Positions 41,839 to 63,189 of a stretch of DNA of 64,000 nt are shown piece after piece. Under the pieces are notes generated by a model. The model was not told where the DNA came from. It searched no databases and saw only the letters and a list, made by a program, of their open reading frames with translations. The stretch is from Candidatus Methylomirabilota bacterium. GTDB lineage: Bacteria; Methylomirabilota; Methylomirabilia; Rokubacteriales; CSP1-6. The stretch spans positions 1,995 to 65,994 of the forward strand of contig JBKPAK010000020.1 in NCBI GenBank assembly GCA_046726415.1, written 5' to 3'. Numbering within the stretch: position 1 is the first letter of the stretch; every line of letters begins with the position of its first letter. The translations under genes and the position numbers were made by a program.

Positions 41839-42996
41839 TGAAGATCACTGCCCTCGAGACGTACTTCCTCTCGGCGCCCTTGCCGCAGCCCGTCCGCACG
41901 TCGACCCATACGATCAGCCGGGTCAGCGAGGTCATCGTCAAGCTCGCGACGGATGCTGGCCCCGTGGGGATCGGCGAGGCGCACGGGCCCTTCCTGTTCC
42001 AGGGCGCCGAGGGTCTGCGCACCGTGAACGACATTCTGAAGGCGATCACGCCGCTCGTCGTCGGAGGAGATCCCTTCGACGTCGAGCGGATCTGGCAGGA
42101 TGTATTCGCGCTGACGTACCGCACGGTGCGGGGGATCCCCGCGCTGGCCCGGCAGCAGCGTCCGCTGGTGACCGCCCTGAGCGCTATTGACATCGCGCTG
42201 TGGGACCTCATGGGGAAGGCGATCGGGCGACCAGTCTACGCCCTGCTGGGCGGGGCACTCCGCCGGCGCGTGCCCGCGTATGTGACGGGCTTTTACTACC
42301 GGGACGGCGAACGGCCGGACGACCTCGTGCGTGAGGCGGCGCCATGTACATGGAGCAGGGCTATCGCACGGTGAAGGTCAAAGTCGGCGGATTGACGCCG
42401 GAGGCGGATGCCGAGCGCGTGGGCCTGATCCGGAGGGCCGTGGGCAAGGGCGTGGCGATCATGCTCGATGCGAACCAGGGCTGGGATTACCCGACCGCGG
42501 TGCGCGCCGCCCAGTTGTGCGCCCCTCACGACATCTTCTGGCTGGAAGATCCCATGCCGTGGTACGACGAGCCGCCACACGCTGCAGAAGCTGAAGGCGG
42601 CGGTCAGCATCCCAATCGCGGCCGGCGAGACGGAGGCGAGCCCCTTCGGTCTGCGCACGATGGTCGCCGAGGGGTTGGTCGATTACCTGATCATCGACTC
42701 GACGTGGGCCGGGGGGGCTGACGACCTGGCGGAAGGCTGCGGTGGTCGCCGAGCTGTATCAGGTGCCTCTGGCCGCACATCACGATCCGCAGATCCACGT
42801 CCATGCAGTGGCGGCGAGTCCGACCGGATTCATCCTGGAGTCGTTCGCCGACCCCACCCGCGATCCGCTGTGGTTCGAGCTGTTTCGCGAGCGGCCGCCC
42901 ATCATCGATGGCTCCATGGCGCTTCCCGAGGCGCCCGGACTCGGGCTCGAGTTGCGCGACGAGACGCTGGAGAAATACGGTGTGAAGCTCGGCTGA
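41838..42996 (+). pseudogene. Enolase-superfamily (mandelate racemase / muconate lactonizing enzyme) gene disrupted by three frameshifts
   Basis: Homologous segments lie in three frames. 'MKITALETYF...DDLVREAA' shifts near 42340 to 'MYMEQGYRTVKVKVGG...MLDANQGW...FWLEDPMPWYDE'. That shifts near 42575 to 'HTLQKLKAAVSIPIAAGETE...IIDSTWAGG'. A shift in the G7 run at 42711-42717 then leads to 'LTTWRKAAVVAELYQVPLAAHH...GVKLG*'. ATG overlaps the CoA-transferase stop (TGATG). Confidence 0.75.
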
Positions 42997-43058
42997 CGGT
43001 CAGGGCCGGTGAAGCGAACGGTGAGCCGGGTGGCCGCCGGTGTGATCGAGGCCGCGGC

Positions 43059-44063
43059 TCACCGCTGGCGCACCGAGCAGGTCGGGGCCAGAGCGCGGTC
43101 GAGACACTGCCGAAGCCGGGCCCCCGTGACCGCGGCGTACGGCTCCTGGAGCATGATATCGGCTCGGCAGCTAGGTGACGCGGGGTGCACTTCGAGACCC
43201 GACCCGGCGAACGCCTCCCACTCCAGAGACCGGTCGTCGGCCAGGCTTACCTCGTCGGTGCTCGGCAGGAAGAGCGTGATCCGACCGGGGTAGACCCGCG
43301 GCAGGTACCGCCTGGCGGCCGCGGCGGTCGCCTGTTCCACGCGCAGCCGGTACACGCGCTCGGCACTCCCGCGCTCGATGCTTCGCCGCGCGACGAGATC
43401 TCCCACCTTGGTCCGCACGTATCCGGCGCGCTCGCCGCGCCCCAAGGTCATCAGGATCCGCCCGTGCCTCCTCAGCCGCTCCAACGCCAGTCGGACTTCT
43501 ACGCGGCTCCGATGGCGCCATCCCAGTGCCGTCGGAGAGGGCGTGGCGAATAGGGCGAGCAAGGCAACCTCGTGCGCCTGAGCTCGGAGCTGCTGAGCCA
43601 TCTCGAAAGCCACCACCCCGCCCAGGCAATAGCCGCCGAGCGCGTAGGGCCCTTCCGGCTGGAGGCCTCGCATCTCTGCCACAAAGTAGGCGGCAAGATC
43701 CTCGATCCGCTCGAGCGGAAGGCGCGTCCCGTCGAGCCCCGGTGGCCGCAAGGCGTAGAACGGCTGGTCGGTTCCCAGGTGACTGGCCAGGCGGACGTAG
43801 CAGAAGACGTCTCCATTGTGCCCGGGCACGGCGACCAGGCGGGGGCGGGAGCCGGCAGCCTGCATGGGAACCACCGCCGAGCTCTTCGACCATTCCTCAG
43901 CCGCCTGGAGAAACGCCACGATTTCGGGCTTGCGCAGGCCGAGCTCCTCGCGAAGCGCGAGGGTGAGGCCCCCCTGGGGTGCGTTACAGCGCAGGCGATC
44001 CCCTTCCACCCAGACCCGGATATCCCGGCTGCGCAGTTGGGAGAGGAACTCGGCCGTTGTCAC
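43059..44063 (-). CDS. Stand-alone thioesterase with N-terminal TubC-like NRPS docking domain; Cys in the nucleophile elbow
   Basis: aa 1-55 'VTTAEFLSQLRSRDIRVWVEGDRLRCNAPQGGLTLALREELGLRKPEIVAFLQ' is TubC_N-like. The alpha/beta-hydrolase core carries 'YALGGYCLGGVVAFEMAQQL'. The Cys146 codon TGC is at 43626-43628. GTG 44063 overlaps the NRPS stop (GTGA). Confidence 0.85.
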   Translation of the reverse strand: MTTAEFLSQLRSRDIRVWVEGDRLRCNAPQGGLTLALREELGLRKPEIVAFLQAAEEWSKSSAVVPMQAAGSRPRLVAVPGHNGDVFCYVRLASHLGTDQPFYALRPPGLDGTRLPLERIEDLAAYFVAEMRGLQPEGPYALGGYCLGGVVAFEMAQQLRAQAHEVALLALFATPSPTALGWRHRSRVEVRLALERLRRHGRILMTLGRGERAGYVRTKVGDLVARRSIERGSAERVYRLRVEQATAAAARRYLPRVYPGRITLFLPSTDEVSLADDRSLEWEAFAGSGLEVHPASPSCRADIMLQEPYAAVTGARLRQCLDRALAPTCSVRQR

Positions 44064-47000
44064 AGCTCGATCTCGTCTCGAGCCCCGATTGGTGCGGAGT
44101 GCTCTTTTCCCGAGGCCCACGTGAGGGTGTCCACGACCTCGGCCAGCCCGGCTACCGTGGGGGCGATGAAGAGGCTGCGCAGCGGCAGCTCCACGGCGAA
44201 TTGCTCGCGAGCGCGCGCGATCAGGCGGGCCGCCAGGAGTGAATGGCCGCCCAGGTCGAAGAAGTTATCGTGGATATCGACGCGATCCTGCTGCAGGACG
44301 TCGGCCCAGATGGCAGCCAGTGCCTTCTCGGTGTCGGAGCGAGGTGAAGCAGTCGGCCGATCGGCTCTCCCAGACTCGTCCCGGGCGGGAAGAGCCCGAC
44401 GGTCGACCTTGCCGTTGGGGGCTAACGGCAGCGCGTCCAGGACGACGAAGGCCGAAGGGATCATGTACTCGGGAAGCCGTCGGCGGAGGTGAACCCGAAG
44501 CTCGGTCTCGCTGAGGTCTGCTCCGGCTACGGCGGAGGTCACGTAGGCCAACAGCCGCTTGAGCTCAGGCGCGTCCTCCCGCAGCACGACCACACTCTCG
44601 CGAACGCCGGGACACCGGGCCAGGGCGTTCTCGACCTCGCCGAGCTCGATGCGGAAACCCCGGAGCTTGACCTGATGGTCGAGGCGGCCCAGGTAGTCGA
44701 GGGTGCCATCGGCCCGGTAGCGGGCGAGGTCACCGGTCTTGTAGAGGCGGGCGTTTGGATCGGCGCTGAACGGATGTCGGATGAACTTCTGGGCGGTGAG
44801 ATCGGGGAGGTGCAGATAGCCGTGGGCCAGGCCGCATCCTCCGATGTGCAGCTCGCCGGGAACGCCGACAGGTACGGGCTGCAAGTGGGGGTCGAGGAGG
44901 TAGATCTCGGTATTGGCGATGGGACGGCCGATGGGGACGGGATCGTCGGTGCCCGAGACGCGATGCAAGGTAGACCAGATGGTGGTCTCCGTGGGGCCGT
45001 AGAGATTCCAGACACTGACGCCGCGGCGGCAGAGCGCGGTGGCCAGGTCGGTCGAGAGGGCCTCGCCGCCGCAGAGGATCGCGAGGCCCGGCGTACCGGG
45101 CCAGCTAGCTTCCAGCATCAGACGCCACGTGGCCGGAGTGGCCTGCATGATCGTGACCTGGTGACGCGCGAGCAGGCCGACCAGCTGAGCTCCGTCGCTG
45201 GTGGTGTCGCGGCGGGCGATGATGACGCGAGCGCCCACGAGGAGCGGCAGGAACAGTTCCAATCCGGCGATGTCGAAGGACAGGGTGGTTACGGCCAGGA
45301 GGCAGTCGTGGGCGGTGACACCCGGCGTCCGGAGCATGCTGGCGAGGAAGTTGACCAAGGCCCGGTGCGGGACCTGGACACCCTTGGGCTGGCCGCTGGA
45401 GCCTGAGGTGTAGATGACGTAGGCAACGTCGTCAGCCGTAACCCCGCTGACGGGAGGGGCCTCGGGCTCGAGACTGATCAGATCCCAGTCGGCGTCCAGA
45501 TAGACCGTTTGGGCGTCGTGGTTGTCCAGCGTGTCCTCGAGCGCGCGCTGGGTGACAAGGATAGGGGCCTGGGCGTCGGCGAGCATGAAGGCCAAGCGCT
45601 CGGGGGGGTAGGTGGGATCCAGGGGCACATACGCTCCGCCCGCCTTGAGGATGCCCAGCACGCCGACGAGCATGTCGAGGGAACGCTCGACGCACAGGCC
45701 GACGCGGCAGTTGGGGCCGACGCCGCGACCGCGCAGGTGATGAGAGAGCTGGTTGGCGCGGCGGTGGAGCTCGCGGTAGGTGAGAGCGGCATCCTCGAAG
45801 ACAGCGGCGATCGCGTCGGGAGAGCACTCGGCCTGAGCCTCGAGGAGATCGGGCAGGGTGGCCTGCTGGGGATGGGCCGCTCCGGTGGCGTTCCAGTCGA
45901 CGAGGAGCTGCCGGCGCTCGTCGTCAGTGAGAAGCGGTAAGGCAGACAGGCGCTCGGTGGGACTGGCCACGATGCCTTCGAGCAGGACTCGGAAGTGGCC
46001 GGCGAGACGCGCGATGGTGGGGGGGTCGAACAGATCGGTGTTGTACTGCAGCGCGCCGCGCAGGCCCTCGCTGCTCTCGCGCAGGAACAGGGTCAGGTCG
46101 AACTCGGAGGCACCCGTTTCGGTGTCGATCGGCCTCGCGGTCAGACCCGGGAGGGCGAGGGCGATGGGAGCGGTGTTCTCCAGCACGAACATCACCTGGG
46201 CGAGCGGGGCGTGGCCGAGGCTCCGCTCGGGACGCAAGTCCTCCACGAGTTTCTCGAAGGGAAGATCCTGGTGGTCGTACGCGTCGAGGGTGACGCGGCG
46301 GACGCGGCCGAGCAGATCGCGGAAGGAGGGGTCGTCAGCTGCGGAGGTCCGGAGGGCCAGCGTATTGACGAAGACGCCTATGAGTGGCTCAAGGTCGGGT
46401 CGGGACCGCCCGGCAATCGGCGACGCCACGACGATGTCGCTCTGCCCGCTGAGGCGATGCACCAGGGTCTGGACGGCGGCGAGGAGGCACATAAAGAGGG
46501 TGACGTCCTCGCGGCGGCTCAGGGCAAGCAAGTCCGCGGTCAGCGCCGCGGGCAGGGCGAAGTAATGGTGGGCGCCGCGATAGCTCTGCACCGCGGGCCG
46601 GGGCCGATCCGTAGGGAGCTCGAGAAGCGGAGGAACGCCGGCGAGCTGCTGGATCCAGTAGGCCCGCTGGGCGGTCACCGCCGGTCCTTCGAGCATCTGG
46701 CGCTGCCAGAGGGCGAAGTCGGCGTACTGGATGGGCAGGGCCGGCAGAGGAGACGGCCGGCCGTGGGTGAAGGCTTCGTAGAGGGCAGCGAGTTCCTGGA
46801 AGAGCACGCCGAGAGACCAGCCGTCGGAGGCGATGTGATGGCTGACCAGGAGGAGGACGCACTCGTCGGCCGCCAGCCGAACCACGGCCGCCCGCAGCAG
46901 CAGATCGCGGGTGAGGTCGAAGGGGCGGCCAGCTTCCTGTCTGAGTAGCCGCCCTAGTTCGGTCTCGCGGGGAGCCGCAGGCCAGGCGCGCAAGTCGACG

Positions 47001-50000
47001 ACGGTTACGTCGGCTGGCCGAGACCCGGCGATGATTTGGACGGGGCTGCCGCGCTGAAAGGCGAAGGTCGTGCGCAGGGCCTCATGGCGCGCGACGAGCA
47101 AGTCCAGACTCTGCTGCAGGGCCGGGAGATCGAGGGCGCCCCCGAGGCGAACAGCGGAGGCGATGTTGTGGAGCGGGCTGTCGGGGGTGAGCTGGTTGAG
47201 GAACCACAGGCGCTGCTGAGCGAAGGAGAGCGGGCAGGGACCCGTATCGAGACGGCGCGGAATTGCCCCATTCTCTGCGCGCGGGGCGAGGTCGCTCGGC
47301 CGGCCGAAGGCAGCGCGGCCTGCGTCGATCAGCGTGGCCAGCTGCGCCACGCTGGGCGACTCGAACAGGGCGCGGAGGGACACGTCGGCGCCGAAGGAAT
47401 CCCGCAGTCGAGCCACCATCCGCATGCCGAGCAAGGAGTGGCCGCCCAGGTCGAAGAAGTTGTCATGGACGCCGACCTCGGGGAGGTCGAGCAGATCGCA
47501 CCAGATCTGAGCGATGAATCGTTCGGTCGCCGTGGTTGGCGGTGCGAGCCGCGGCACTGGAGCCCCGTCCGCAATGGCATCGGGCAACGCAGAGCGATCG
47601 ACTTTCCCGGAGGGCGTGAGCGGCAAGGTTGGGAGGGGCACGAAGACGGAGGGGATCATATAGTGCGGCAGCTTCTGCCCAAGGTAGGCGCGGAGGTCGG
47701 CCGCGGAGGGTTCAGCCCCGCCGCGGCCGACCACGTAGGCCACCAGGCGCTGGTCACCGGAGTGGCTCTCGCGGACGACCACGACTGCGTGGCCCACGAG
47801 CGGGTGCTGCCCCAGAACCGTTTCGATTTCCCCGAGCTCGATGCGGAAGCCCCGAATCTTGACCTGGTGGTCGAGACGGCCGAGGAAGTCGAGCTGTCCG
47901 TCGCTGCGGTAGCGGACGAGGTCTCCCGTCCGATAGAGGCGCGCGCCCGGGCGGCCGGCGAACGGATCCGCCACGAATCGCTCGGCGCTCAGGTCCGGTC
48001 GACCTCGGTAGCCGCGCGCCACCCCCGCGCCGCCGATGTACAGTTCGCCGGGCACGCCCACGGGCCGCGGTTGACCTCGCGGGTCGAGGACGTACACGCG
48101 GGTGTTGGCGAGCGGCCGTCCGATGGAAACGGCGCCGTCCCCGGGCGTCACTCGATGCGCGGTGGACCAGATCGTCGTCTCCGTTGGCCCGTACAGATTC
48201 CAGACCTCGCTGGCGCGGGAGAGGAGCTCCGCGGCCAAGCCGCGCGCGAGCGCTTCGCCCCCACACAGCGCCTTGAACGGCCGGCGGCCTTCCCAGCCGG
48301 CCTCGAGCAGGAGCCGCCACGTGGCAGGCGTCGCCTGCATCACCGTCGTTCCCGATCGCGTGATCCACTGCGCGAGCTGCCGGCCGTCCGCCGCCGCGTC
48401 CTGGCTGACCACCTCGACCTTGGCGCCGACGACGAGCGGCAGGATCAGCTCCAGCACCGCGATGTCGAATGAGATGGTGGTGACGGACAGCATCTGGTCC
48501 GATGGCGTCAGAGTCAGGATCTCCTGCATCGCGCCGAGAAAGTTCGCCACGGCTCGGTGAGGGATCTCCACGCCCTTGGGGCGCCCCGTCGAGCCCGAGG
48601 TGTAGATCGCGTAGGCCAGCGACTCCGGGTCGATCGGTCCCGAGGGGGGCCCGGCGCTGCGGTCAGAGAGTTCCGCACAGTCCGAATCCACATAGACGAC
48701 GGTGGTTGTCCCGGCCGGGACGCGATCGCGGAGCGAGGTCCGCGTCAGAAGAACGACCGCTTGGGAGTCCTCTAACATGAAGCCGAGCCGCTCGGTGGGG
48801 AACGTCGGATCGAGGGGCACATACGCCCCCCCCGCCTTGAGAACGGCCAGGAGCGCCACGACGAGATCTGCGGACCGCTCGAGACAGAGGCCGACCAGGA
48901 CGTCCGGCCCGACGCCGAGTTCACGAAGGCGATGCGCGAGGCGGTTGGCGCGGTGATTGAGCTGCTGGTACGTCACAGTTTCCCCGCCGCACACCACGGC
49001 CACGGCCTCCGGAGTCCGGCCCGCCTGGGCGTCGAAGAGAAGCGGCACGGTCGTGGCCGGATAGTCCCGCTCAGTGGCGTTCCACCGCCCTAAGATCTGA
49101 CCGCGATCCTCCGCTGACAGTACGCTGACGAACCCGATGTTCTGCTGCGGATCGGCGGCCAGCCCCTCCAGAACCGCCTGGTAGGAGCGAAGCCACTGCC
49201 GGATGGTATCGGACTCGAAGAGATCGATGTTGTAGTACCAATCCACCACCAGGTTCCCCGCGGACTGCGCGATGTTCACGTCCACGTCGAAGTTGATCGC
49301 GCGCCGAGGCGGGATGACGAGCTCGGCCTCGAGACCGGCGAACTTCGGCGCCACCGCGGGGGGGTCGAGATTGAAGATCACCGATGTGAGCGGCAGTCGG
49401 CTCCGATCGCGAGGGAGGCGGAGCTTCTCGAGCAGGCTGCCATAGGTGTAGCGCCGGTGATCGTGGACGTCGAAAACGATGGTCTTCAGCGAACTCAAAT
49501 AGTCCGCGAATGGCATGTCAGGCTCGAGGCGGCTCCGCACCGGCAAGAGGCTTGCGCAGTGTCCCACCACGTCGTTGGCGCCTTCTGCCGTCTGCCCTGC
49601 CACCACGATGCCGACGACGATGTCCTCGTGCCCGGTCAGCCGATGGAGCACCACCTTCAGTCCGGCCAGGAGCGCGGTGAAGAGCGTGCTGCCGCGCGAC
49701 GCGCCCAGGTGTCGCAGCGCACGGCCGAGCGCCGCCGGCAACGTGAGGCGTTCTCGGCCCGCCCGGTACGTCTTCACAGCGGGTCGCGGCCGGTCGGCCG
49801 GCAGCTCGAGGACGGGCACAGGGGCCGCGAACTGCTCGAGCCAGTACTGCTCGGTCGCTGTCCGGGCCGCGGTGCCCTCGAGCTCGCGCTCCTCGCGAGC
49901 ATAATCGGCGAACTGCCTGGCCGGACCCAACGGGGCGGTCCGACCCTGGCGGACGGCTGAATAGAGAGTCCCGATCTCCTCGAGCAAGATTCCGAGCGAC

Positions 50001-50503
50001 CATCCGTCCACCGCGATGTGGTGCACGGATACGAGGAGGACGTGGTGCTCCTCGCCGAGCCTCGCGATGCGGGCGCGCAGCACGGGGCCCCGACCGAGGT
50101 CGAATGGGTCCCACACGTCCTGCCGCGCGAGTTCGTCGAGCAGCCCCTCTCGTTGCGCGGGCGGTCGCGCCGACAGGTCGTCCAGGGGCACATCCACCGG
50201 CATGAACGCCTCCAGGATGCACTCCTTTCCATCCGCGCTGAATCGGCTGCGCAGGGCGTCATGTCGCGCAACGAGCTGCTGGATCGCCTCCCGGAGCGCG
50301 CTCACCTGACACGGCCCGCGGAGGTGTACGGCCACCGCGTCGGCGAACGCCCGCGATCCGTCCTCGCCCATCTGGGTGGCCAGCCAGATCTCCCGCTGCG
50401 CCTCGGTCATCGGCAAGGTGGTCGGGGCGGATTGCTCCTGTCTGAACGGATCGAAGTCGACCGGCGTCAACGTGAGGGAAGAGAGACGCGGCTCGGTGGT
50501 CAT
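44060..50503 (-). CDS. NRPS, two modules: C-A(Gly)-T-C-A(Gly)-T
   Basis: 2147 aa from ATG 50503. Approximate domains: C 49139-50416 (HHIAVDG); A 47549-49066; T 47318-47536 (GGHSL); C 45959-47242 (HHIASDG); A 44384-45886; T 44129-44341 (GGHSL). A-core motifs are 'YTSGS(T/S)G.PKG', 'NLYGPTE', 'GELxIGG', 'YxTGD', 'GRxDxQVKxRGFRIELGE' and 'GKVDR'. The first 184 codons of the track ORF are read-through over the PKS gene. Confidence 0.95.
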   Translation of the reverse strand: MTTEPRLSSLTLTPVDFDPFRQEQSAPTTLPMTEAQREIWLATQMGEDGSRAFADAVAVHLRGPCQVSALREAIQQLVARHDALRSRFSADGKECILEAFMPVDVPLDDLSARPPAQREGLLDELARQDVWDPFDLGRGPVLRARIARLGEEHHVLLVSVHHIAVDGWSLGILLEEIGTLYSAVRQGRTAPLGPARQFADYAREERELEGTAARTATEQYWLEQFAAPVPVLELPADRPRPAVKTYRAGRERLTLPAALGRALRHLGASRGSTLFTALLAGLKVVLHRLTGHEDIVVGIVVAGQTAEGANDVVGHCASLLPVRSRLEPDMPFADYLSSLKTIVFDVHDHRRYTYGSLLEKLRLPRDRSRLPLTSVIFNLDPPAVAPKFAGLEAELVIPPRRAINFDVDVNIAQSAGNLVVDWYYNIDLFESDTIRQWLRSYQAVLEGLAADPQQNIGFVSVLSAEDRGQILGRWNATERDYPATTVPLLFDAQAGRTPEAVAVVCGGETVTYQQLNHRANRLAHRLRELGVGPDVLVGLCLERSADLVVALLAVLKAGGAYVPLDPTFPTERLGFMLEDSQAVVLLTRTSLRDRVPAGTTTVVYVDSDCAELSDRSAGPPSGPIDPESLAYAIYTSGSTGRPKGVEIPHRAVANFLGAMQEILTLTPSDQMLSVTTISFDIAVLELILPLVVGAKVEVVSQDAAADGRQLAQWITRSGTTVMQATPATWRLLLEAGWEGRRPFKALCGGEALARGLAAELLSRASEVWNLYGPTETTIWSTAHRVTPGDGAVSIGRPLANTRVYVLDPRGQPRPVGVPGELYIGGAGVARGYRGRPDLSAERFVADPFAGRPGARLYRTGDLVRYRSDGQLDFLGRLDHQVKIRGFRIELGEIETVLGQHPLVGHAVVVVRESHSGDQRLVAYVVGRGGAEPSAADLRAYLGQKLPHYMIPSVFVPLPTLPLTPSGKVDRSALPDAIADGAPVPRLAPPTTATERFIAQIWCDLLDLPEVGVHDNFFDLGGHSLLGMRMVARLRDSFGADVSLRALFESPSVAQLATLIDAGRAAFGRPSDLAPRAENGAIPRRLDTGPCPLSFAQQRLWFLNQLTPDSPLHNIASAVRLGGALDLPALQQSLDLLVARHEALRTTFAFQRGSPVQIIAGSRPADVTVVDLRAWPAAPRETELGRLLRQEAGRPFDLTRDLLLRAAVVRLAADECVLLLVSHHIASDGWSLGVLFQELAALYEAFTHGRPSPLPALPIQYADFALWQRQMLEGPAVTAQRAYWIQQLAGVPPLLELPTDRPRPAVQSYRGAHHYFALPAALTADLLALSRREDVTLFMCLLAAVQTLVHRLSGQSDIVVASPIAGRSRPDLEPLIGVFVNTLALRTSAADDPSFRDLLGRVRRVTLDAYDHQDLPFEKLVEDLRPERSLGHAPLAQVMFVLENTAPIALALPGLTARPIDTETGASEFDLTLFLRESSEGLRGALQYNTDLFDPPTIARLAGHFRVLLEGIVASPTERLSALPLLTDDERRQLLVDWNATGAAHPQQATLPDLLEAQAECSPDAIAAVFEDAALTYRELHRRANQLSHHLRGRGVGPNCRVGLCVERSLDMLVGVLGILKAGGAYVPLDPTYPPERLAFMLADAQAPILVTQRALEDTLDNHDAQTVYLDADWDLISLEPEAPPVSGVTADDVAYVIYTSGSSGQPKGVQVPHRALVNFLASMLRTPGVTAHDCLLAVTTLSFDIAGLELFLPLLVGARVIIARRDTTSDGAQLVGLLARHQVTIMQATPATWRLMLEASWPGTPGLAILCGGEALSTDLATALCRRGVSVWNLYGPTETTIWSTLHRVSGTDDPVPIGRPIANTEIYLLDPHLQPVPVGVPGELHIGGCGLAHGYLHLPDLTAQKFIRHPFSADPNARLYKTGDLARYRADGTLDYLGRLDHQVKLRGFRIELGEVENALARCPGVRESVVVLREDAPELKRLLAYVTSAVAGADLSETELRVHLRRRLPEYMIPSAFVVLDALPLAPNGKVDRRALPARDESGRADRPTASPRSDTEKALAAIWADVLQQDRVDIHDNFFDLGGHSLLAARLIARAREQFAVELPLRSLFIAPTVAGLAEVVDTLTWASGKEHSAPIGARDEIEL

Positions 50504-55422: not shown

Positions 55423-55423
55423 G

Positions 55424-58400
55424 CTACGGGTTCCGGCCGATCCTTCGCGGTCGGGATTGCGCGTCCCGCTGGCGCCGAGCCCGATCTCGAACGTGGCTCA
55501 GGCAAGATGCCTCGTTCGGCTGGTGGCTGAGGTAGCCGGCCAGCGCACTGACGGTGGGGTATTGGAGCAGCGCCACGATGGGAAGGTTCAGGCCCAGCCG
55601 GGCCTGGAGCCGGGTGTGGGTCTCGACGAGCAGAATAGAGTGCCCGCCGAGATCGAAAAAGTTATCGTCGAGCCCGACCCGCTCTACTTCGAACAGCTCC
55701 TGCCAGATCGCGGCGATGGCCTGCTCGAGCCGCGTGCGCGGGGCGAGATACGCCGCGCCCTCCTTCGAGCGGTGATCGAGCCCCGCGACCGCCAGCTGCC
55801 CGTCTGGAGGTGGAGGCAGCACCGCCAGGATGTCGGCGATCGTCCGTCGCGTGGCGGTAGTCATGGCCTCGAGGACCGCGGCCAAAGCGGCGAGCGAGCG
55901 GCGGATCGCCGCGCCGTCGAACTGGTTGCGGCGGTAGATCATCTTCAGCCGGAGCTCAGGAGCCGGCGTCACCACCAGAGTCAACGGATAGTTGGTCGCC
56001 TCCGGCATCGAGACCGGAGCGATCTCGACGGTTGGTCCCAGCCGGCGCGCCTCCTGGCTGACGGCGTAGTTCTGGAAGACGAGCAGACTGTCGAACAGGC
56101 GAAGCCGCCACGGAATGCCCGTCCAGGCCTGAATCTCGAGCGGGGAGACGTACTGGTGGAGCACGGCATCGGCCTGCTTGTCCTGTGCCTCGGCGAGCCA
56201 GACCGGTACAGACATCTCCGGCCTGACCTGGAGCCGGATGGGGAGATTGCTCACGAAGGTCCCCACCATCGATTCGATACCGGCCACCTTAGGTGGTCGC
56301 CCGGAGAACGTGACCCCGAAGACCACGTCGGCCTGGCCACTGCGATGGCTCAGGAGTAAGCCCCATGCCCCTTGGACGAGCATGCTCAAGGTGAGGTGAT
56401 AGCTCCGCGCAAACGAACGGAGGGCCGCCCCAGTCCGCTCTGACAGCCTCACCTCTTCCTCGGCGTGCGACTGCCCTGCGCCCTCTGAGCGTCCCGCCGG
56501 CGCAGGCGGCAAGCCGAGCGGGGTGGGCGCGGTGAAGCCCGCGAGCCAGCGCCGCCAGAAGGCCTCGGTCTCCGTACTGTTCCGACCTTCCAGCCAGCCG
56601 ATGTAGTCGCGGTACGCGTGGGGGGGCGCGAGTCTGGCATCTCGGCCCGCGCGGAGGGCTTCGTAGCACTCCGACAGCTCGGAGAAGATTAGGGGCCACG
56701 ACCAGCCGTCGACGTGGAGGTGATGGGTGGTCCAGAGAAGGTGGAACGTTTCGTCGGCCAACCGGAGGAGCGTCACGCGCGTGAGTGGAGCCCGCGACAG
56801 GTCGAAGCCCTGAGCGGCGTCCGACTCCACGAGTTCGGCCAGTCGCGTGCTCTGGTCGGTGGCGGAGAGAGCACTCCAGTCGTGCTCGCTCCACGGCAGC
56901 GCCACGCGGCGGACGACGACCTGCAACTCCCGCTGGCCGTCGGAGACGAAGGCGGTGCGGAGAATCGAGTGCCGATTGACGACCAGTTCCCACGCGCGCC
57001 GCAGCGCCGGCGCGTCCACCGAGCCGTGCAGGCGGTACTGCCACTGCTCCAGCCCGGAGCCGGCGGCCTCCATCGAGTGAAACAGGCGCTGCATGGGAGA
57101 CAACGCGTATATGTCTTCCACCTCCTCGAGGTCGCAGGGAAGCCGGTCGAGAAGAGCCAGGTCGAACGCCGCCGGCGCGACGTGGGCCGGCCGTGCGTCA
57201 GTTGCCCCTCGCGTCTCACAGGCCAGGAGCACTTCGCGCACAGCCTCGACGAAGCTCTGGGCCAATCGCTCCACCGTCTGCCGGCGGTGGATGTTTTCGC
57301 TGTACGTCCACCGCATCTGGAGCCGTCCGTGAATGACCAGGGCCAAGAGGTCGATCAGGTGCCGCCGCGGAGCTCGTGGGCTGTGCCAGGGGCCGGCGGG
57401 TTCCGCGGCGAAGCGGAAGAGGCCGGAGCCGGCCAGAACCTGGTCGAACTGACCGAGGTAGTTGAACAGCACCGCGGGCTGGGGATGGTCGCCGAGGAGG
57501 GTGGCGGTGGTCGGATCGCCGAGGTAGCGAAGGACGCCGTAGCCAATGCCTCGGCCCGGGACCTGCCGCAGTTGCTCCTTCACCGCGTGGAGCACGTCGG
57601 CGAGGGGACCACGCGGGGGCTCGAGCCGCAGCGGGAAAATGCTGGTGAACCAACCCACGGTCCGCGAGAGATCCACATCGTCGAAGATCGCCTCCCGACC
57701 GTGGCCCTCGACATCCACGCAGAGGGACCCGCCCTTCGTCCATCCGGTGAGGCACCGCGCCAGCGCCGCCAACAAGACGTCGTCGACCTGCGCGCGGAAT
57801 ACTTGGGGCACCCGCTGCAGTAGCGCACGTGTCTCCTCGATCCCGATGGACCACGTCACGGTTCGAGCGGACATCTCGGTGTTGGCACCGCCCTCGAAGT
57901 CGACAGGGAGGCGGGCGGAGTCCACGTTCGCGGTGGCCAGCCAATGACTGAGCTGATTCCGGCAGGCTGGCCACTGCGCGTACTCAATGAGCCGCTGCGC
58001 CCAACGCCGATACGACGTCGTCCGGGCGGGCAGCCGCACCGTGTCGCCCCCATGCAGTGCTCGGTAGAGCGTGTCCACATCCCCCAAGAGGATTCGCCAG
58101 GACACCCCATCGATCACCAAATGATGGGCGATGACAAGGAGCCGGCCCGGGCGCCGGGGGCCGAGTCCGAAGTGGGCTATTCGCAGGAGTGGGCCATCGG
58201 CGATGTCGAGAGTGCGCTGGAGCTCAGTCGCCTTCGCTTCGATGGCGGCTGGCAATTCGGCGTCTGGCCGTCCAGAGAGGTCTATCTCCGCGACAGAGAT
58301 GGTCCCGCCATCGTTGCTATAGCGCTGCTCCCAGCCGTGGGCGCCGCGCCGGAACCGCAGCCGGAATGAGTCGTGGTGATCGACGACGTGCTGGCTTGCC

Positions 58401-61400
58401 GCTTCCAGAGCCTGTACATCCACGTCGGTCGGCACCTCGAACAGGAAGGCTTGGTTCCAGTGATCAGGCTCCGGTAGTTCCTGCTCGAAGAACCAGCGCT
58501 GGATCGGAGTGAGGGGAACGCACCCCTCCGCTCGATGGCCGTCGTCCTGCGGCGTCGCGACTGCCGTCACCGCAGCCAGCTCGGCGATCGTCGAGTGCTG
58601 GAACAGCTCCCGAGGCGTGAACGATAGACCAGCCTGACGGGCGCGCGCGATGATCTGGATCGCGAGAATCGAGTCCCCGCCCAGCTCGAAGAAGCTGTCG
58701 TGGACGCCAACCCGCTCGAGCCCGAGCACGGCGGCCCAGATGCCGCTCAGGGTCTCCTCGATGGCCGTCCGGGGAGCCACGTAGCCCCCACGCACGTCGG
58801 GACGCGTCTGATCGAGTGCGGGCAACGCCTTTCGGTCCACCTTCCCGTGGCCGGTTAGCGGGAGCCCGTCGAGCCGCACGAACGCGGCGGGCACCATGTA
58901 GTCGGGAAGCTTGGCCCGCAGGAAGCCGCGTATCTCGTCGGCCATGAGCGGCGCGTCGCGGTCAGCGACGTAGTACGCCACCAGCCTCTTGTCGCCCGGG
59001 ATGTCCTCACGGACGATGACCACCGACTCCCGCACCGCCGAGTGCTGGGCCAGCGCCGATTCGATCTCCCCCAACTCGATCCGGAAGCCCCGAATCTTCA
59101 CTTGGTCGTCGATTCGGCCGAGGTACTCGAGATCCCCATTGGGCAGCCGCCGTGCCAAGTCCCCCGAACGGTAGAGCCGCGCGCCCGGAGCGGCAGTGAA
59201 CGGGTCGGCGATGAATCGCTCGGCGGTGAGCTCGGGCCGGTTCAGGTAGCCACGCCCCACGCCGGCACCACCTATATAGATCTCCCCGGCCACTCCGATC
59301 GGGACGGGACGGAGCCAGCGATCCAGAACATAGACCTGGAGGTCTGGGATCGAACGGCCGATGACGCTGCCGCTGCCGGAAAGGACGTCGTTGAGCGCGA
59401 TCGGACGGTAGGTGACATGCACGGTGGTCTCGGTAATGCCGTACATGTTGATGAGCCGAGGCGGCCGATCTCCAAACCGCTCGAACCAGGGCCGCAGCGC
59501 TTGCAGGTCCAGCGCCTCGCCGCCGAAGATAACGTACCGAAGGGCGAGCCCACGCGACTCGCCCTCCAGTATCACCTGCATCAGCTGTCGAAATGCCGAC
59601 GGCGTCTGGTTCAACACCGTCACCTGCTCCCGGTACAACAGCTCGGCGAACGCCTCCGGCGAGCGACTCACCCAGTAGGGCACCAGCACGAGCCGGCCTC
59701 CGTACAAGAGCGCGCCCCACAGCTCCCACACGGAAAAGTCGAACGCGTACGAGTGGAACAGGGTCCATGCGTCCGCGGGGCCGAAGCGGAACCACGGGTC
59801 GGTGGCGTCCATGAGCCGGACGACGTTCCGATGGGTGATGAGGACGCCCTTGGGACGCCCGGTGGACCCTGACGTGTAGATGACGTAGGCCAGGCTGTCG
59901 GCCGTAGCGCCGCCGGAGACATTGTCTTCGGCTGCGCCGCCGTCAGCTGCCTCTTCGCCCGAATCGCCCTCGAGCAGGACCATCCGAGCTCGATGCGGGG
60001 GCAGTGCGGAGGCCAGTTCGCCCTGGGTCAGCAGAACGGCGACTTCGGAATCCTCCAGCATGAAGGCGAGGCGATCCTTGGGGTACCGGGGATCGAGTGG
60101 GAGATAGGCGCCCCCCGCCTTCAGGATGGCGATGATCGCCATGACCATGTCCACGGATCGCTCGACGAAGAGCCCGACCAAAACCTCCGGCCCCACGGAG
60201 AGCTCCCGCAGGCGGCGAGCCAGCCGGTTTGCGCCGCGGTTCAGCTGTCGGTAGGTCAGCGCCCGCCCATCATGGATCACCGCCACCGCGTCCGGCGTTC
60301 GCGCAACCTGCCGCTCGAATCGCTGGTGAATGCACAAGCCGTTGGCGGGGCCGATGGGGAGTGGGTTCGGGCTAGGCACCAGCTCGGCGCGCTCTGTCGC
60401 GGTGAGATACGGCACCGCCCGCAGCGGTTGGTCTGCGGCAGTGATCATCCCCTCGAGAAGGAGGCCGACATGATCCAGCATCCGCGCCGCGGTGTCGTCG
60501 TCGAATCGCCGGCGGTCGTACTCCAGGCGAAGGAGCAGCTCGGCGTCCGCATAGGCAATGAAGGTGAGCGGGTAGTTCGTCTGCCCGAGGTAGCGAAAGC
60601 GCCGGCCGGTCCACTCTCCTCCCTGCGCGCGCAACGCGGTGTTCAGGAGGTAGCGCTCGTAGACCACGAGACTCTCGAAGAGCGGCGTACCGCGCGGCAC
60701 GTCGCTCCAGTCCTGGATCTTGACCAGCGGTGTGTGCTCGTGCGCGCGCAGGGCCACCCCTTGGCGGCGAAGCTCTCGCAGCCAGGGCACGAGCGGCGCG
60801 TCGGATTTCACGCGAACCCGAACGGGCAGGGTATTGATGAACAGCCCCACCATGTCGTCGGCACCCTCGAGGGACGAGCGCCGACAAGCCCGGGTGGCCC
60901 CAAAAACGATGTCGTCCTCGCCGCTGTAGATGTGAAGCAAGAGCGCCCAGGCGCCTTGCAGCAGGGTGTTGACCGTGAGCTCATGCTTCTCGGCGAAGTC
61001 CCGGAGCCCGGCGGTGACGTCGGCGGCCACTCGTGCCTCGTGGGCGCCGTGAGTTCCCTGCGCGGCAGGTGCCGTGCGCGGGTTTTGCCCCACTCGCAGC
61101 GGCGTCGGTGTCGTGAAGCCTTTGAGCAGGCGCCGCCAGTACTCTTCCGCGCGGGCGGGATCCTGTCCATGCAGCCACTCGATGTAGTCGCCGTACGGCC
61201 GCGGCAGGGGAAGGTCGAGCTCCCGCCCGTCGCGGATCGCCTCGTAATAGGCGAAGACCTCCCGGAGCACGAGCGGGAAGGAGCGCCCGTCGAGCACGGC
61301 GTGGTGGAACGTCCACAACAACCGGGCCACTCGGCCGGGTAGCCAGACCAGGGTCAGGCGCATCAGCGGCGCCTGGCTCACGTCGAAGCCTCGCCGGCGA

Positions 61401-61753
61401 TCGGCCTCGAGCAGAGTTGACCACCGCGCCTGGCAATCCCCAGCGTGGATCGTGGACCAGTCCAGCTCGGCCACGGGGATTTCCACCGAGCGGTAGACCT
61501 CCTGCACCGACTGCGCGACCCCGTCGACGCGGAACCGCGTCCGCAAAATCGGGTGTCGGGCGACGACTCGCTGCCAGGCGGTGAAGAGGGCCGGCGCGTT
61601 CAGCACCTCGTCCAGATCGCAGATGATCTGCTCGATGTCGACGCCGGACGCATCGGACGAAAGACTGTGGAAGAGCATCCCGTGCTGAAGGGGCGAGAGC
61701 TCGTAGGAGGCTTCAACGGCTCGGTGGAGGCCCAACGGTGTCATGGGACACAT
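55424..61753 (-). CDS. NRPS: C-A(Thr)-T-E-C-T (terminal C-T has no A domain)
   Basis: 2109 aa. C 60419-61711 ('LSPLQHGMLFHS', 'HHAVLDG'). A 58829-60346 ('YTSGSTGRPKG', 'NMYGITE', 'YRSGD', 'GKVDR'). T 58574-58786 ('GGDSI'). E 57224-58522 ('PLTPIQRWFFE', 'HHLVIDGVSWR', 'EGHGRE', 'FNYLGQ'). C 55829-57121 ('LSPMQRLFHS', 'HHLHVDGWS'). T 55529-55747 ('FFDLGGHSI'). The alternative ATG at 61744 overlaps the PPTase stop (ATGA). Confidence 0.95.
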   Translation of the reverse strand: MCPMTPLGLHRAVEASYELSPLQHGMLFHSLSSDASGVDIEQIICDLDEVLNAPALFTAWQRVVARHPILRTRFRVDGVAQSVQEVYRSVEIPVAELDWSTIHAGDCQARWSTLLEADRRRGFDVSQAPLMRLTLVWLPGRVARLLWTFHHAVLDGRSFPLVLREVFAYYEAIRDGRELDLPLPRPYGDYIEWLHGQDPARAEEYWRRLLKGFTTPTPLRVGQNPRTAPAAQGTHGAHEARVAADVTAGLRDFAEKHELTVNTLLQGAWALLLHIYSGEDDIVFGATRACRRSSLEGADDMVGLFINTLPVRVRVKSDAPLVPWLRELRRQGVALRAHEHTPLVKIQDWSDVPRGTPLFESLVVYERYLLNTALRAQGGEWTGRRFRYLGQTNYPLTFIAYADAELLLRLEYDRRRFDDDTAARMLDHVGLLLEGMITAADQPLRAVPYLTATERAELVPSPNPLPIGPANGLCIHQRFERQVARTPDAVAVIHDGRALTYRQLNRGANRLARRLRELSVGPEVLVGLFVERSVDMVMAIIAILKAGGAYLPLDPRYPKDRLAFMLEDSEVAVLLTQGELASALPPHRARMVLLEGDSGEEAADGGAAEDNVSGGATADSLAYVIYTSGSTGRPKGVLITHRNVVRLMDATDPWFRFGPADAWTLFHSYAFDFSVWELWGALLYGGRLVLVPYWVSRSPEAFAELLYREQVTVLNQTPSAFRQLMQVILEGESRGLALRYVIFGGEALDLQALRPWFERFGDRPPRLINMYGITETTVHVTYRPIALNDVLSGSGSVIGRSIPDLQVYVLDRWLRPVPIGVAGEIYIGGAGVGRGYLNRPELTAERFIADPFTAAPGARLYRSGDLARRLPNGDLEYLGRIDDQVKIRGFRIELGEIESALAQHSAVRESVVIVREDIPGDKRLVAYYVADRDAPLMADEIRGFLRAKLPDYMVPAAFVRLDGLPLTGHGKVDRKALPALDQTRPDVRGGYVAPRTAIEETLSGIWAAVLGLERVGVHDSFFELGGDSILAIQIIARARQAGLSFTPRELFQHSTIAELAAVTAVATPQDDGHRAEGCVPLTPIQRWFFEQELPEPDHWNQAFLFEVPTDVDVQALEAASQHVVDHHDSFRLRFRRGAHGWEQRYSNDGGTISVAEIDLSGRPDAELPAAIEAKATELQRTLDIADGPLLRIAHFGLGPRRPGRLLVIAHHLVIDGVSWRILLGDVDTLYRALHGGDTVRLPARTTSYRRWAQRLIEYAQWPACRNQLSHWLATANVDSARLPVDFEGGANTEMSARTVTWSIGIEETRALLQRVPQVFRAQVDDVLLAALARCLTGWTKGGSLCVDVEGHGREAIFDDVDLSRTVGWFTSIFPLRLEPPRGPLADVLHAVKEQLRQVPGRGIGYGVLRYLGDPTTATLLGDHPQPAVLFNYLGQFDQVLAGSGLFRFAAEPAGPWHSPRAPRRHLIDLLALVIHGRLQMRWTYSENIHRRQTVERLAQSFVEAVREVLLACETRGATDARPAHVAPAAFDLALLDRLPCDLEEVEDIYALSPMQRLFHSMEAAGSGLEQWQYRLHGSVDAPALRRAWELVVNRHSILRTAFVSDGQRELQVVVRRVALPWSEHDWSALSATDQSTRLAELVESDAAQGFDLSRAPLTRVTLLRLADETFHLLWTTHHLHVDGWSWPLIFSELSECYEALRAGRDARLAPPHAYRDYIGWLEGRNSTETEAFWRRWLAGFTAPTPLGLPPAPAGRSEGAGQSHAEEEVRLSERTGAALRSFARSYHLTLSMLVQGAWGLLLSHRSGQADVVFGVTFSGRPPKVAGIESMVGTFVSNLPIRLQVRPEMSVPVWLAEAQDKQADAVLHQYVSPLEIQAWTGIPWRLRLFDSLLVFQNYAVSQEARRLGPTVEIAPVSMPEATNYPLTLVVTPAPELRLKMIYRRNQFDGAAIRRSLAALAAVLEAMTTATRRTIADILAVLPPPPDGQLAVAGLDHRSKEGAAYLAPRTRLEQAIAAIWQELFEVERVGLDDNFFDLGGHSILLVETHTRLQARLGLNLPIVALLQYPTVSALAGYLSHQPNEASCLSHVRDRARRQRDAQSRPRRIGRNP

Positions 61754-62571
61754 GAGTCAACCCCAGGACCTTCGTGGAGCCGCCTCTTGTGGCCCACCCA
61801 TGCCCCGCACACCAGACGTTCGATAGCGCCCTCGACGGCAATCGCCGCGACATGGCTCCGATCGATCGGCACCTCATGAAGGCTGAAGTGCTCGCTCTCG
61901 CCCGGACTGTTCTCGATGCGCAGCAATCGAGCCGGCTCCCCGGGCGCAAAGGCCACGTCAAAGTTCGCGAGAGGGTAGGAGAGCCCCTGCCCGAGGGCCT
62001 TGACGATTGCCTCCTTCCGCGTCCAGCAGCGAAAGAACGCGGAGAGCTGCTCGTCAGGTCGCAGCGACCGGAGCACTTGACGCTCCTGGGCCGAGAAGAC
62101 GCTGGCGGCTAGCTCGTCGAGGTCCTCTACCGCTCGGATCAGCTCGATATCGACGCCGATCTCTCGGTCGCGCGTCAGTGCGCACAGGGCAAGCCCATGT
62201 GAATGGGACAGGTTGAAGCGGAGCCCGTCCCCGCCCGCATCCCCGGATAGGGAGGGCTTGCCATGAGCGCTGTACTCGAACTCGAGCCGATCCGGGTCGA
62301 CGCCACAGTAGCCGGCCAAGACCTCCCGCAGGAAGCCGCGGCCGACCACAAACCGCTTCCGGTCCCGCTCGAAGTGAAACCTCGCCGCCCGTGCCGCCTC
62401 ATCCGCGGACAGCGCGCTGGCGAGCCGCCGAACCTCGGGCGCGAGCTGATCCAGATCCGCCACCCACACATGGATTTCGCCTCCGGGCAGCGGGACGCTG
62501 GCTGCCGGAGTCGGCAAGCATAGGGATCGAGGACCCGCTTGGACGTTGGACTCGAAGTGCACCACCGTCAC
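61741..62571 (-). CDS. 4'-phosphopantetheinyl transferase, Sfp type (first gene of the NRPS/PKS operon)
   Basis: 'EIHVWVADL', 'HGKPSL', 'FNLSHSHGL', 'GVDIELI', 'FFRCWTRKEAIVKALG'. The start is uncertain (GTG 62571 or a downstream TTG/GTG). Confidence 0.85.
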   Translation of the reverse strand: MTVVHFESNVQAGPRSLCLPTPAASVPLPGGEIHVWVADLDQLAPEVRRLASALSADEAARAARFHFERDRKRFVVGRGFLREVLAGYCGVDPDRLEFEYSAHGKPSLSGDAGGDGLRFNLSHSHGLALCALTRDREIGVDIELIRAVEDLDELAASVFSAQERQVLRSLRPDEQLSAFFRCWTRKEAIVKALGQGLSYPLANFDVAFAPGEPARLLRIENSPGESEHFSLHEVPIDRSHVAAIAVEGAIERLVCGAWVGHKRRLHEGPGVDSCVP

Positions 62572-63189
62572 GCCGGGCGATGGCTTGTTTCGGCGCCTCG
62601 GGCGAGTGGCCCGGGCGGCCCCTCGTGCAGCCGGGCCTCGGCCCCGCGCATATCCGAGGCGTCTTGCTCCATGGGCGGCTTCTTAGCAATTTCGCGGCCG
62701 AATCTGGCCCGGCGGTGTCGGAGGGATTTCGACACTGCCTGCCCGCAGCGCCATGCCAACGTTGCGTCCTACCCCGGGCTGGATCGGCGCTTGTTACCTC
62801 AGTTTCTTGGCCCTCCCGACGGGGGAGGAGCCGGTAATGGCATCGACCTGAAGACAATGGGCCGGTGCGCACGTTGTAGATATGACAATGACGAGATTTC
62901 CGGCGGCGGCGCCGGACTTTCCGGGCCGGAACCCGCGCTGCCGACGGGACGTCACATCGGGACCGATTCGCGCTTGCAGGGAGCCTATTGCGCGCCTACG
63001 CCGTGAAGCGCGCGATGGGCAGGGCGCGCTCGCTCGTGGCGCCGACCGGCGGTCGAGCACGCTCTCGCGGGCCCGCCGCTTGCTGGATTTGGAAGTACAT
63101 GCGGATAAAGGCAAATCGGAAAGCAGCTTCCGAAGGGGAGAAGGCGGCGACGCCGCCCTCTCTCTGGCTGAGAACAGGAGGAACTTGAG

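Follow-up and report, generated by a model that had tools for sequence, protein, structure and literature searches.

What product, if any, would come from a compact assembly line that joins peptide and polyketide chemistry and ends in an atypical release enzyme? The question is raised by contig JBKPAK010000020.1 of Candidatus Methylomirabilota bacterium, of which one stretch of 64,000 nucleotides, here called the window, was analysed. On its minus strand, at 43059-62571, lie genes for a 4'-phosphopantetheinyl transferase (PPTase), two non-ribosomal peptide synthetases (NRPS-1 and NRPS-2), an intervening type I polyketide synthase (PKS) and a free-standing thioesterase (TE). These genes constitute a five-gene hybrid peptide-polyketide operon that is real and intact. 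That it encodes a functional, self-priming NRPS-PKS line, belonging to a family that is uncharacterised and has spread horizontally among soil bacteria, and working by the steps proposed below, is a reading that we hold with slightly more confidence than doubt.

Layout and integrity of the operon

Five long open reading frames (ORFs), with the Pfam families expected of such a line, lie exactly where an earlier note, made from the sequence alone, had placed five packed minus-strand genes. Domains are abbreviated as C (condensation), A (adenylation), T (thiolation, or carrier), E (epimerization), KS (ketosynthase), AT (acyltransferase), ACP (acyl carrier protein) and AMT (aminotransferase).

61741-62571, minus strand: Sfp/HetI-type PPTase, the first gene of the operon (Pfam; motifs GVDIE and WTRKEAIVKALG)
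55424-61753, minus strand: NRPS-1, 2106-2109 amino acids (aa), C1-A(Thr)-T1-E-C2-T2 (Pfam, motifs, relatives of the same length 55-58% identical)
50500-55422, minus strand: PKS, 1631-1640 aa, KS-AT(malonyl)-ACP-AMT (Pfam, motifs)
44060-50503, minus strand: NRPS-2, 2147 aa, C(post-AMT type)-A(Gly)-T-C(LCL)-A(Gly)-T (Pfam; code DILQLGLIWK twice)
43905-44063, minus strand: TubC_N-type (beta-hairpin) docking domain at the N-terminus of the TE (Pfam TubC_N, 2.2e-18; AerJ and TubC docking domains in the PDB)
43059-43877, minus strand: thioesterase with nucleophile Cys146 in GYCLGG (Pfam Thioesterase, motif, AlphaFold2 model)

The 19.5 kb contain neither a frameshift nor an internal stop and, in a window of about 68% G+C, the four large genes show a coding-type G+C content at third codon positions (GC3) of 0.81-0.84. 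Copies that are 99% identical occur on independent metagenome contigs. Pfam E-values for the operon proteins reach 1e-234. The first gene matches ACPS (2.2e-19) and AASDHPPT_N (3.5e-12) and scores 223.7 bits against the HetI-like model of NCBIfam, under the 370-bit cut-off of that model. NRPS-1 contains three Condensation matches (one of them the E domain), a single AMP-binding/AMP-binding_C pair and two PP-binding domains; the PKS contains the N and C parts of ketoacyl-synt, Acyl_transf_1, PP-binding and Aminotran_3 (5.3e-48); and NRPS-2 contains two each of Condensation, AMP-binding and PP-binding. The operon possesses the C/A/T and KS/AT/ACP modules on collinear genes, together with the release enzyme, that define a modular hybrid NRPS-type I PKS system.

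The operon genes are translationally coupled. The PPTase stop codon (TGA, 61743-61741) overlaps the NRPS-1 start at 61744 within the tetranucleotide ATGA (61744-61741), a further in-frame ATG lying at 61753; the PKS TGA overlaps the NRPS-2 ATG at 50503 in the same manner (ATGA, 50503-50500); and the NRPS-2 TGA overlaps the GTG of the TE gene at 44063 (GTGA, 44063-44060). At the remaining junction (55426-55420), the NRPS-1 TAG at 55426-55424 is separated by one base from an ATG that begins at 55422. Direct reading agrees with the earlier note at all four junctions, the 1-nt gap before the PKS being the one detail that fails if translation starts at an alternative in-frame ATG at 55395. Because this second ATG has a stronger Shine-Dalgarno sequence (GGAG, 6-nt spacer) than the start at 55422 and is also where the database copies of the PKS (1631 aa) begin, the gap may be 28 nt rather than 1 nt. 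At the other end, the operon is taken to start with the PPTase because no NRPS gene is found further upstream.

Absences claimed for the operon were borne out as well: no ketoreductase (KR), dehydratase (DH), enoylreductase (ER) or methyltransferase (MT) family has a Pfam match among the five operon proteins, the PKS included, and an MbtH-like motif is absent from every frame of the window in a regular-expression scan. No second KS is found in the window.

Modules, relatives and an additional glycine module

The domain string that had been proposed from core motifs, C-A(Thr)-T-E-C-T / KS-AT(malonyl)-ACP-AMT / C-A(Gly)-T-C-A(Gly)-T / dock-TE(Cys), was recovered from Pfam matches and motifs, and the three A-domain specificities, the malonyl-type AT and the Cys-type TE were reproduced from the specificity codes, HAFH and GYCLGG, respectively. 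None of the key motifs in the C, A, T, E, KS, AT, ACP or AMT domains is degenerate, and only the TE departs from expectation, in that its canonical Asp and His are missing. NRPS-1 is divided as follows.

60380-61720, minus strand: C1, N-terminal C domain with intact HHAVLDG, post-E (DCL-like) clade (PDB match, neighbour labelling)
58841-60319, minus strand: A domain, code DFWNIGMVHK for Thr (motif reading)
58571-58753, minus strand: T1 carrier, LGGDSI (Pfam, motif)
57164-58516, minus strand: E domain with all seven core motifs, E1-E7 (PIQRWFFE, HHLVIDGVSW, EGHGRE, RTVGWFT and FNYLGQ read directly)
55826-57121, minus strand: C2, DCL-type C domain, HHLHVDGWSW (neighbour labelling, PDB match)
55520-55720, minus strand: T2 carrier, LGGHSI, lacking an A domain of its own and predicted to pass the chain to the KS (Pfam, motif)

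We take the Stachelhaus code DFWNIGMVHK to denote Thr and DILQLGLIWK to denote Gly. The GGDSI form of the carrier motif, as in T1, is usual ahead of E domains; between C2 and T2, Pfam finds no AMP-binding match. The PKS retains the Cys/His/His of the KS, GHSLG and HAFH (the malonyl signature) of the AT, DSL of the ACP and the AMT lysine in YGKVIGGG. Its AMT region (residues 1149-1601; 50620-51978 of the window) matches the AMT domain of MycA (PDB 6KFM) at 2.6e-141; the earlier note had named mycosubtilin/iturin synthetases among the known carriers of such modules.

For typing of the C domains, 496 C domains from the fetched loci were labelled by the domain that precedes them and the 40 nearest neighbours of each query were inspected. 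An E domain precedes 30 of the 40 neighbours of C1 and 37 of the 40 neighbours of C2, and the first C domain of McyB is the best PDB match of both (1.1e-106 and 3.6e-99, respectively), LCL-type domains matching far more poorly (~1e-20). The neighbours of C1 from outside the family are of this post-E kind. In NRPS-2, an AMT domain stands directly before 31 of the 40 domains nearest to the first C domain, and a T domain before 35/40 of those nearest to the second. By this typing, C2 is a fitting DCL partner of the E domain, NRPS-2 begins with a C domain of a dedicated post-AMT clade, and the types agree with the positions of the domains in the line. C1 is predicted to be a DCL-clade domain placed at an N-terminus: its HHAVLDG stands at residue 150, in the first domain of the first NRPS, and the next gene upstream is divergent and is not an NRPS gene. 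The C1 motif WTFHHALLDGRSF is kept across the family of relatives.

The earlier note knew of no characterised pathway with this overall architecture. That statement holds for NCBIfam, where none of the five proteins attains the cut-off of an equivalog model, for the literature, where searches on the AMT domain, KS-AT-ACP-AMT, Acidobacteria and Rokubacteria returned no matching pathway, and for the PDB, which gave domain-level matches only. Characterised relatives are limited to single domains, namely the MycA AMT domain and the N-terminal half of the AB3403 TE, and the operon may provisionally be called an orphan. The architecture is not a one-off, however. A comparison of gene order in relatives shows that the core, C-A(Thr)-T-E-C-T / KS-AT-ACP-AMT / C-A-T / dock-TE(Cys), recurs in at least 12 loci, from metagenome-assembled genomes (MAGs) of at least five phyla, at 40-70% identity, and forms a recurrent soil-metagenome family. 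The loci include the following.

L001, Acidobacteriaceae: window-type core
L161, Mycobacteriaceae MAG: window-type core
L201, Terriglobia: window-type core, with a PPTase in front as in the window
L196, Gemmatimonadaceae: window-type core
L038, Chthoniobacteraceae: window-type core
L049: window-type core, with a full module at the C1 position
L006, Alphaproteobacteria: window-type core with an extra upstream module
L241/L242: window-type core
L243: window-type core, the PKS fused to NRPS-2 and the TE
L200 and L240: window-type arrangement, the contigs ending inside NRPS-1

The family thus spans Acidobacteriota, Verrucomicrobiota, Gemmatimonadota, Proteobacteria and an actinobacterial MAG. The code of its first A domain is the Thr code or a one-residue variant of it at position 278 (S or C, 3/10 loci), and the code of the A domain that follows the AMT varies among Thr, Ser and Gly types. 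Family AMT domains group together in a neighbour-joining tree, albeit a crude one without support values. A short variant, C1-A(Thr)-T / KS-AT-ACP-AMT / C-A(Gly)-T-TE(Cys), occurs in an uncultured delta proteobacterium MAG (L044, 6892-18798) and lacks T1-E-C2; its TE has a Cys nucleophile yet keeps the canonical PGDH histidine motif. Soil metagenomes abound in stand-alone KS-AT-ACP-AMT proteins (~1600-1660 aa, 55-60% identity), and most of the fetched loci that encode KS-AT-ACP-AMT have, in front of it, an A-T pair with 21-52% identity to the Thr A domain of the window, which we take to be the FAAL-ACP pair (FAAL, fatty acyl-AMP ligase) of iturin/puwainaphycin logic. Sequence comparison indicates that the window architecture represents a recurrent, uncharacterised and probably horizontally spread family of soil bacteria rather than a singleton.

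Several family loci also encode a JmjC/Cupin_8-type protein (L001:1698-3701, L201:7249-9203, L200:1556-2524, L006:332-1300 and 18081-19001), and most of these carry, beside NRPS-1, a conserved Cys-rich protein of ~330 aa without a Pfam match. Polysaccharide genes are likewise found near certain relatives (L161:24979-26232, L006:19173-21793, L196:6458-9356, L200:349-1347, L241:3773-9628, L243:25390-26354).

Such genes bear on a quite improbable explanation, in which the family product is a building block associated with the cell surface or a polysaccharide, rather than a diffusible antibiotic, and the window copy has moved away from its usual polysaccharide locus. A Polysacc_synt_3 flippase adjoins L161, L006 and L243, GT2 is found at L006 and L196, Wzy_C at L196, a polysaccharide deacetylase at L200 and an asparagine synthase with an epimerase at L241, all of which would suit this explanation. 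The association is nevertheless seen in about half of the loci examined and has no background rate against which to read it, MOP-family flippases can also export small molecules, and no polysaccharide genes lie near the operon in the window.

The closest known logic to that of the PKS is found in MycA/ItuA and in the puwainaphycin-type FAAL-PKS-NRPS clusters, in which KS-AT-ACP-AMT converts a beta-keto thioester to a beta-amine, as would the module in the window. With iturin and mycosubtilin synthetases the line shares a MycA-like AMT (2.6e-141) and a C domain of the dedicated post-AMT clade (31/40). It differs in that the KS would be primed by the peptidyl carrier of C-A(Thr)-T-E-C-T instead of by a FAAL and an ACP; the window contains no FAAL gene, and NRPS-1 has no second AMP-binding domain. 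Only two Gly follow the AMT here, as against a heptapeptide or a longer chain, the window TE has a Cys and lacks the canonical His/Asp, and the Bacillus loci are ~39% identical overall to the window. Since the defining fatty acyl-AMP ligase priming is missing, the cluster is not a member of the MycA/ItuA family, although its AMT step is alike. McyE and NdaF also place an AMT within a PKS module that is followed by NRPS domains, and it is McyB that supplies the best PDB match of C1 and C2. The AMT-bearing PKS module of McyE, however, includes a C-methyltransferase and is preceded by further PKS modules. The window line has neither and encodes its AMT-bearing PKS as a separate protein; for want of a C-methyltransferase and upstream PKS modules, it is not McyE-like.

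Relatives have a single module in NRPS-2 where the window has two, and the additional module coincides with a change in codon usage, measured as C minus G at third codon positions (C3-G3).

44579-48106, minus strand: codon-usage island in NRPS-2 (aa ~800-1975), approximately one module long (C3-G3 shift)

Plus-strand GC skew climbs to 0.12-0.17 only between 44 and 48 kb, and the cause is third-codon-position usage. Mean C3-G3 in the island is 0.277 (22 windows of 100 codons), C being strongly preferred over G, as compared with 0.005 in the first 800 aa of NRPS-2 and 0.073 +/- 0.097 in the remaining genes of the window, and a value of 0.277 is attained by just 1.5% of single background windows. 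The module spacing in NRPS-2 is 1064 aa, and the ends of the island lie within both Gly A domains. Given that the island is about one module long and that relatives lack this module, one module has probably been inserted by recombination, its donor having had another codon usage. A recent tandem duplication of the Gly module was ruled out, as the two modules share 64-67% DNA identity in their conserved cores. The probable insertion would be a natural, datable one with its breakpoints inside A domains, relevant to the rules of NRPS engineering.

The free-standing thioesterase

The label TE(Cys) given to the last protein is correct as to the nucleophile and incomplete otherwise, since the canonical Asp position is occupied by Ala173 and the canonical His position by Arg300/Ala301. 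An AlphaFold2 model, built on a 47-sequence family profile alignment, has a TE fold (predicted local distance difference test score, 93.6) in which Cys146 follows strand 140-145, at the GxS/CxG elbow after beta5. The top Foldseek matches of the model are NRPS/PKS TEs, with AB3403 of Acinetobacter baumannii in fourth place; AB3403 (PDB 4ZXH) is also the best PDB match by sequence, only the N-terminal half being aligned with a single-sequence query. In a profile-profile alignment (hhalign) that set the five nearest TEs of the family against 25 canonical ones taken from the fetched loci, Ala301 falls on the invariant canonical His, in a column that varies within the family (Ala, Met or Gly), and a family Gly/Ala falls on the canonical Asp after beta6. 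When the 47-sequence family profile is compared with AB3403 and 7CRN, their His falls on an Asp/Gly of the loop GPdGCdGD and the Asp of AB3403 on a family Gly. By these alignments, the enzyme is more than a Ser-to-Cys variant and lacks two of the three usual catalytic residues, Asp and His. The Cys is kept across the family loci, and the conserved residues include H82-N-G-D85, H200 and D277.

A wider survey drew on 1391 representatives found at E <= 1e-30, of which 134 of the best 150 were analysed. A His at the H82 position, in the motif PGHNGD, is present in 67 of these 134 relatives, and every one of the 67 has a Cys nucleophile; Ser-type TEs never have H82. The H82 loop follows the strand that normally supplies the oxyanion hole. 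Among the GHNGD-type enzymes, 61/67 have no acidic residue at Asp position I (Gly or Ala instead) and 54/67 have no His at all in the post-beta8 loop, so that GHNGD anticorrelates with both the canonical Asp (6 vs 61) and the canonical His (13 vs 54), with Fisher p values of 1e-18 and 3e-8 that are uncorrected for relatedness. D277, after beta7, is invariant in the five closest members and is present in 66/134 relatives. The subfamily is, in short, a large one in which the Cys nucleophile is kept and the loss of the canonical Asp and of the canonical His is correlated.

A Cys nucleophile is rare among solved NRPS TEs, AB3403 being one of few (PMC11298585). AB3403, a C-A(Gly)-T-TE protein, resembles the window TE in this respect, but it keeps the Asp after beta6 and the His after beta8 and has GGST where the window family has HNGD. 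The Cys-TEs ObiF and SulM come closer in other ways, sharing the Cys nucleophile, the lack of an Asp at position I and the small size of the product; in this type, the Asp has moved to the loop after beta7 (position II), the canonical His is kept and the C-terminal residue is a beta-hydroxy or beta-amino residue (PMC11298585). D277 of the window TE, after beta7, corresponds to this position II. ObiF and SulM retain the canonical His, however, the motif of SulM is Gln-Cys-Asn as opposed to Tyr-Cys-Leu in the window, and ObiF matches the TE profile weakly (1.9e-9, N-terminal part). Release as a beta-lactone or beta-lactam, after the fashion of ObiF and SulM, was ruled out, because the terminal residues are Gly, which can form neither, and because the TE differs in its His and its motif. 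Our literature search for TEs that lack the catalytic His found no match.

The GHNGD subfamily extends beyond AMT systems, with one member located behind a KR-containing PKS and another behind AMT / C-A-T. At L244:1-11050 (GCA_040960625.1), a GHNGD docking Cys-TE that is 52% identical to the window TE ends a line of two NRPSs and a KR-PKS without an AMT, a radical SAM gene being the next gene after the assembly line; the TE subfamily is therefore common to several cluster types.

A bolder and, in our estimation, rather doubtful proposal is that the operon typifies a widespread, unstudied family from uncultured soil phyla producing small D-Thr/3,4-diamino-acid peptides, in which the stand-alone docking TE would combine Cys146 with a His relocated to the oxyanion loop (GHNGD), would do without the canonical His and Asp and would favour cyclization driven by an amine or a hydroxyl over hydrolysis. 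If true, a new catalytic configuration would be added to those of assembly-line release enzymes, and the peptides would form a new scaffold class. If GHNGD-type TEs are active, the textbook triad is dispensable for chain release and the motif is a new marker for genome mining.

The missing Asp and His could instead be taken, along with the module that has no A domain, the pseudogene that adjoins the operon (a member of the mandelate racemase family) and the want of any recognisable promoter, regulator or transporter, as signs that the operon is a decaying or silent relic. This we consider very improbable. The A-less C-T module and the TE configuration are both kept in relatives of several phyla, which marks them as family traits rather than decay, all catalytic motifs other than the TE triad are intact, the 19.5 kb are uninterrupted, and the four large genes keep their coding-type GC3.

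Proposed pathway, its difficulties and the genomic surroundings

In the pathway that we favour, the PPTase would convert the carrier domains to the holo form and the single A domain of NRPS-1, as judged from its specificity code, activates Thr. C1, catalytically intact and conserved, would probably N-acylate Thr on T1, using an acyl donor that comes in trans. To judge from the retention of the C1 motif across the family and from the full module found at that position in L006 and L049, the Thr amine would normally carry an attached group. The E domain would then produce D-Thr, which the DCL-type C2 would join to an aminoacyl unit on T2. The simplest source for the T2 load would be a second Thr from the same A domain; the sole support for this step comes from the short variant L044, whose Thr A domain directly serves a T2-like carrier that feeds the KS. 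The KS would extend the T2-bound chain by one malonyl unit, and the MycA-like AMT would turn the beta-keto group into a beta-amine, giving a unit of the 3,4-diamino-5-hydroxyhexanoyl type. The post-AMT-clade C domain would add Gly and the LCL-type C domain of the apparently inserted module a second Gly, whereupon the free-standing TE would dock on the acidic C-terminal tail of NRPS-2, take the chain onto Cys146 and release the product. Since this TE has no canonical His/Asp to activate water, attack from within the chain, by the amine that the AMT installs or by a Thr hydroxyl, seems a likelier means of release than hydrolysis. The product is most likely to be a small D-Thr-(Thr?)-beta-amino-Gly-Gly peptide, perhaps N-acylated and probably cyclized; read colinearly, it would be (acyl?)-D-Thr-Thr-derived 3,4-diamino-5-hydroxyhexanoyl-Gly-Gly, probably in cyclic form. 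Sequence evidence stands behind the activation of Thr and of the two Gly, the intact E domain, the DCL, post-AMT and LCL types of the C domains, the malonyl extension, the MycA-like AMT and the docking Cys-TE; N-acylation by C1, the loading of T2 and release by an internal nucleophile are inferred from these. Priming of T2 by a trans-acting FAAL, which would give an iturin-like beta-amino fatty acid, was ruled out by the lack of a FAAL in the window and the family loci, and also by C2 being a DCL domain placed to condense a D-Thr donor onto T2.

C-T modules without an A domain, whose loading takes place in trans or through a neighbouring A domain, are known from SyrE module 9, HMWP2 and the thalassospiramide synthetases. 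NRPS-1 resembles these in ending with C2-T2 and no A domain, but neither a trans-loading A-T protein nor a shuttle acyltransferase is encoded in or near the operon. The same machinery might perform other chemistry, an alternative that we judge unlikely without dismissing it: C1 would be vestigial or would accept a non-fatty-acyl donor, and T2 would be loaded in trans, for instance with Gly by one of the A domains of NRPS-2, or else by one that is encoded elsewhere, to give a peptide without an acyl group, linear or cyclized head to tail, for example D-Thr-Gly(extended, aminated)-Gly-Gly. T2 does lack a cognate A domain, C1 clusters with post-E DCL domains and is of no obvious starter type, and no acyl-activating gene is found in the operon or beside its relatives. 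Retention of the C1 motif and its flanks across phyla at 40-53% overall identity argues for a function, however, the upstream modules of L006 and L049 imply that the Thr amine is normally capped, and the Thr A domain of L044 serves its T2-like carrier directly.

The favoured pathway, with N-acylation by C1 and loading of T2 by the Thr A domain, must also be set against a number of difficulties. Within the operon there is no acyl-activating gene and, as the earlier note had it, no transporter or regulator. C1 groups with post-E (DCL) domains, whose labels come from genomic context, and not with a recognised starter clade, and the A domain that loads T2 may be another than the Thr A domain. No characterised family member or known product was found. 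The TE could be poorly active if its missing His and Asp are unreplaced. Finally, the JmjC/cupin and Cys-rich proteins of the relatives have no tblastn match in the window, and because this hydroxylase and the Cys-rich protein are absent, the window operon may represent a trimmed form.

NRPS-PKS orphans are a frequent find, and the operon alone is a modest lead, of which the TE configuration and the module insertion are the most informative parts. As a compact, self-priming 19.5-kb representative of its family, it nonetheless offers a route by which one solved product would annotate many clusters from hard-to-culture lineages.

The regions on both sides of the operon are as the earlier note had described them, with non-coding DNA of about 620 bp on one flank and gene decay on the other.

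62572-63189, no strand assigned: divergent intergenic region of 618 bp, presumed to be the promoter region (no gene)

Within this region there is no match to a sigma-70 consensus or to Rfam, and promoter and terminator scans were uninformative. Beyond it, a divergent plus-strand gene (63190-64000), which runs off the end of the window, encodes an OsmY/BON-like lipoprotein, with an AGGAGG site before its start and a signal peptide bearing the lipobox-like sequence LLGTAGC. On the opposite flank, a mandelate racemase/enolase-superfamily pseudogene (~41838-43178, plus strand) is broken by three in-frame stops and drops out of frame at two points, and its 3' end overlaps that of the TE gene by ~120 nt.

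A PBP encoded in the window is 99% identical to metagenome proteins, its only named relatives (61% and 53% identity) coming from Candidatus Rokubacteria, and the uncultured host is probably Rokubacteria-like. Among GTDB species representatives, searched with the PKS, NRPS-1 and the PBP, no close relative was found, the best PBP match being 38% identical.

A second Sfp-type PPTase is encoded at 23582-24331 (minus strand), ~20 kb from the operon. Its neighbours at 21811-22998 (minus), 24417-25598 (plus), 25603-26919 (minus) and 26916-27860 (minus) encode a cytochrome P450, a DAO-family flavin adenine dinucleotide oxidoreductase, a 438-aa protein without a Pfam match and an alpha/beta hydrolase, and the region may be another small biosynthetic locus. 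Genes of the types used in catabolism of aromatic and organic acids (17804-20190 and 33416-41838) flank the operon, none of them obviously tied to the assembly line; they encode Rieske oxygenases, a LigB-like dioxygenase, an amidohydrolase_2 protein, a thiamine pyrophosphate enzyme, a luciferase-like monooxygenase and a family III coenzyme A-transferase. The rest of the window also holds transporters.

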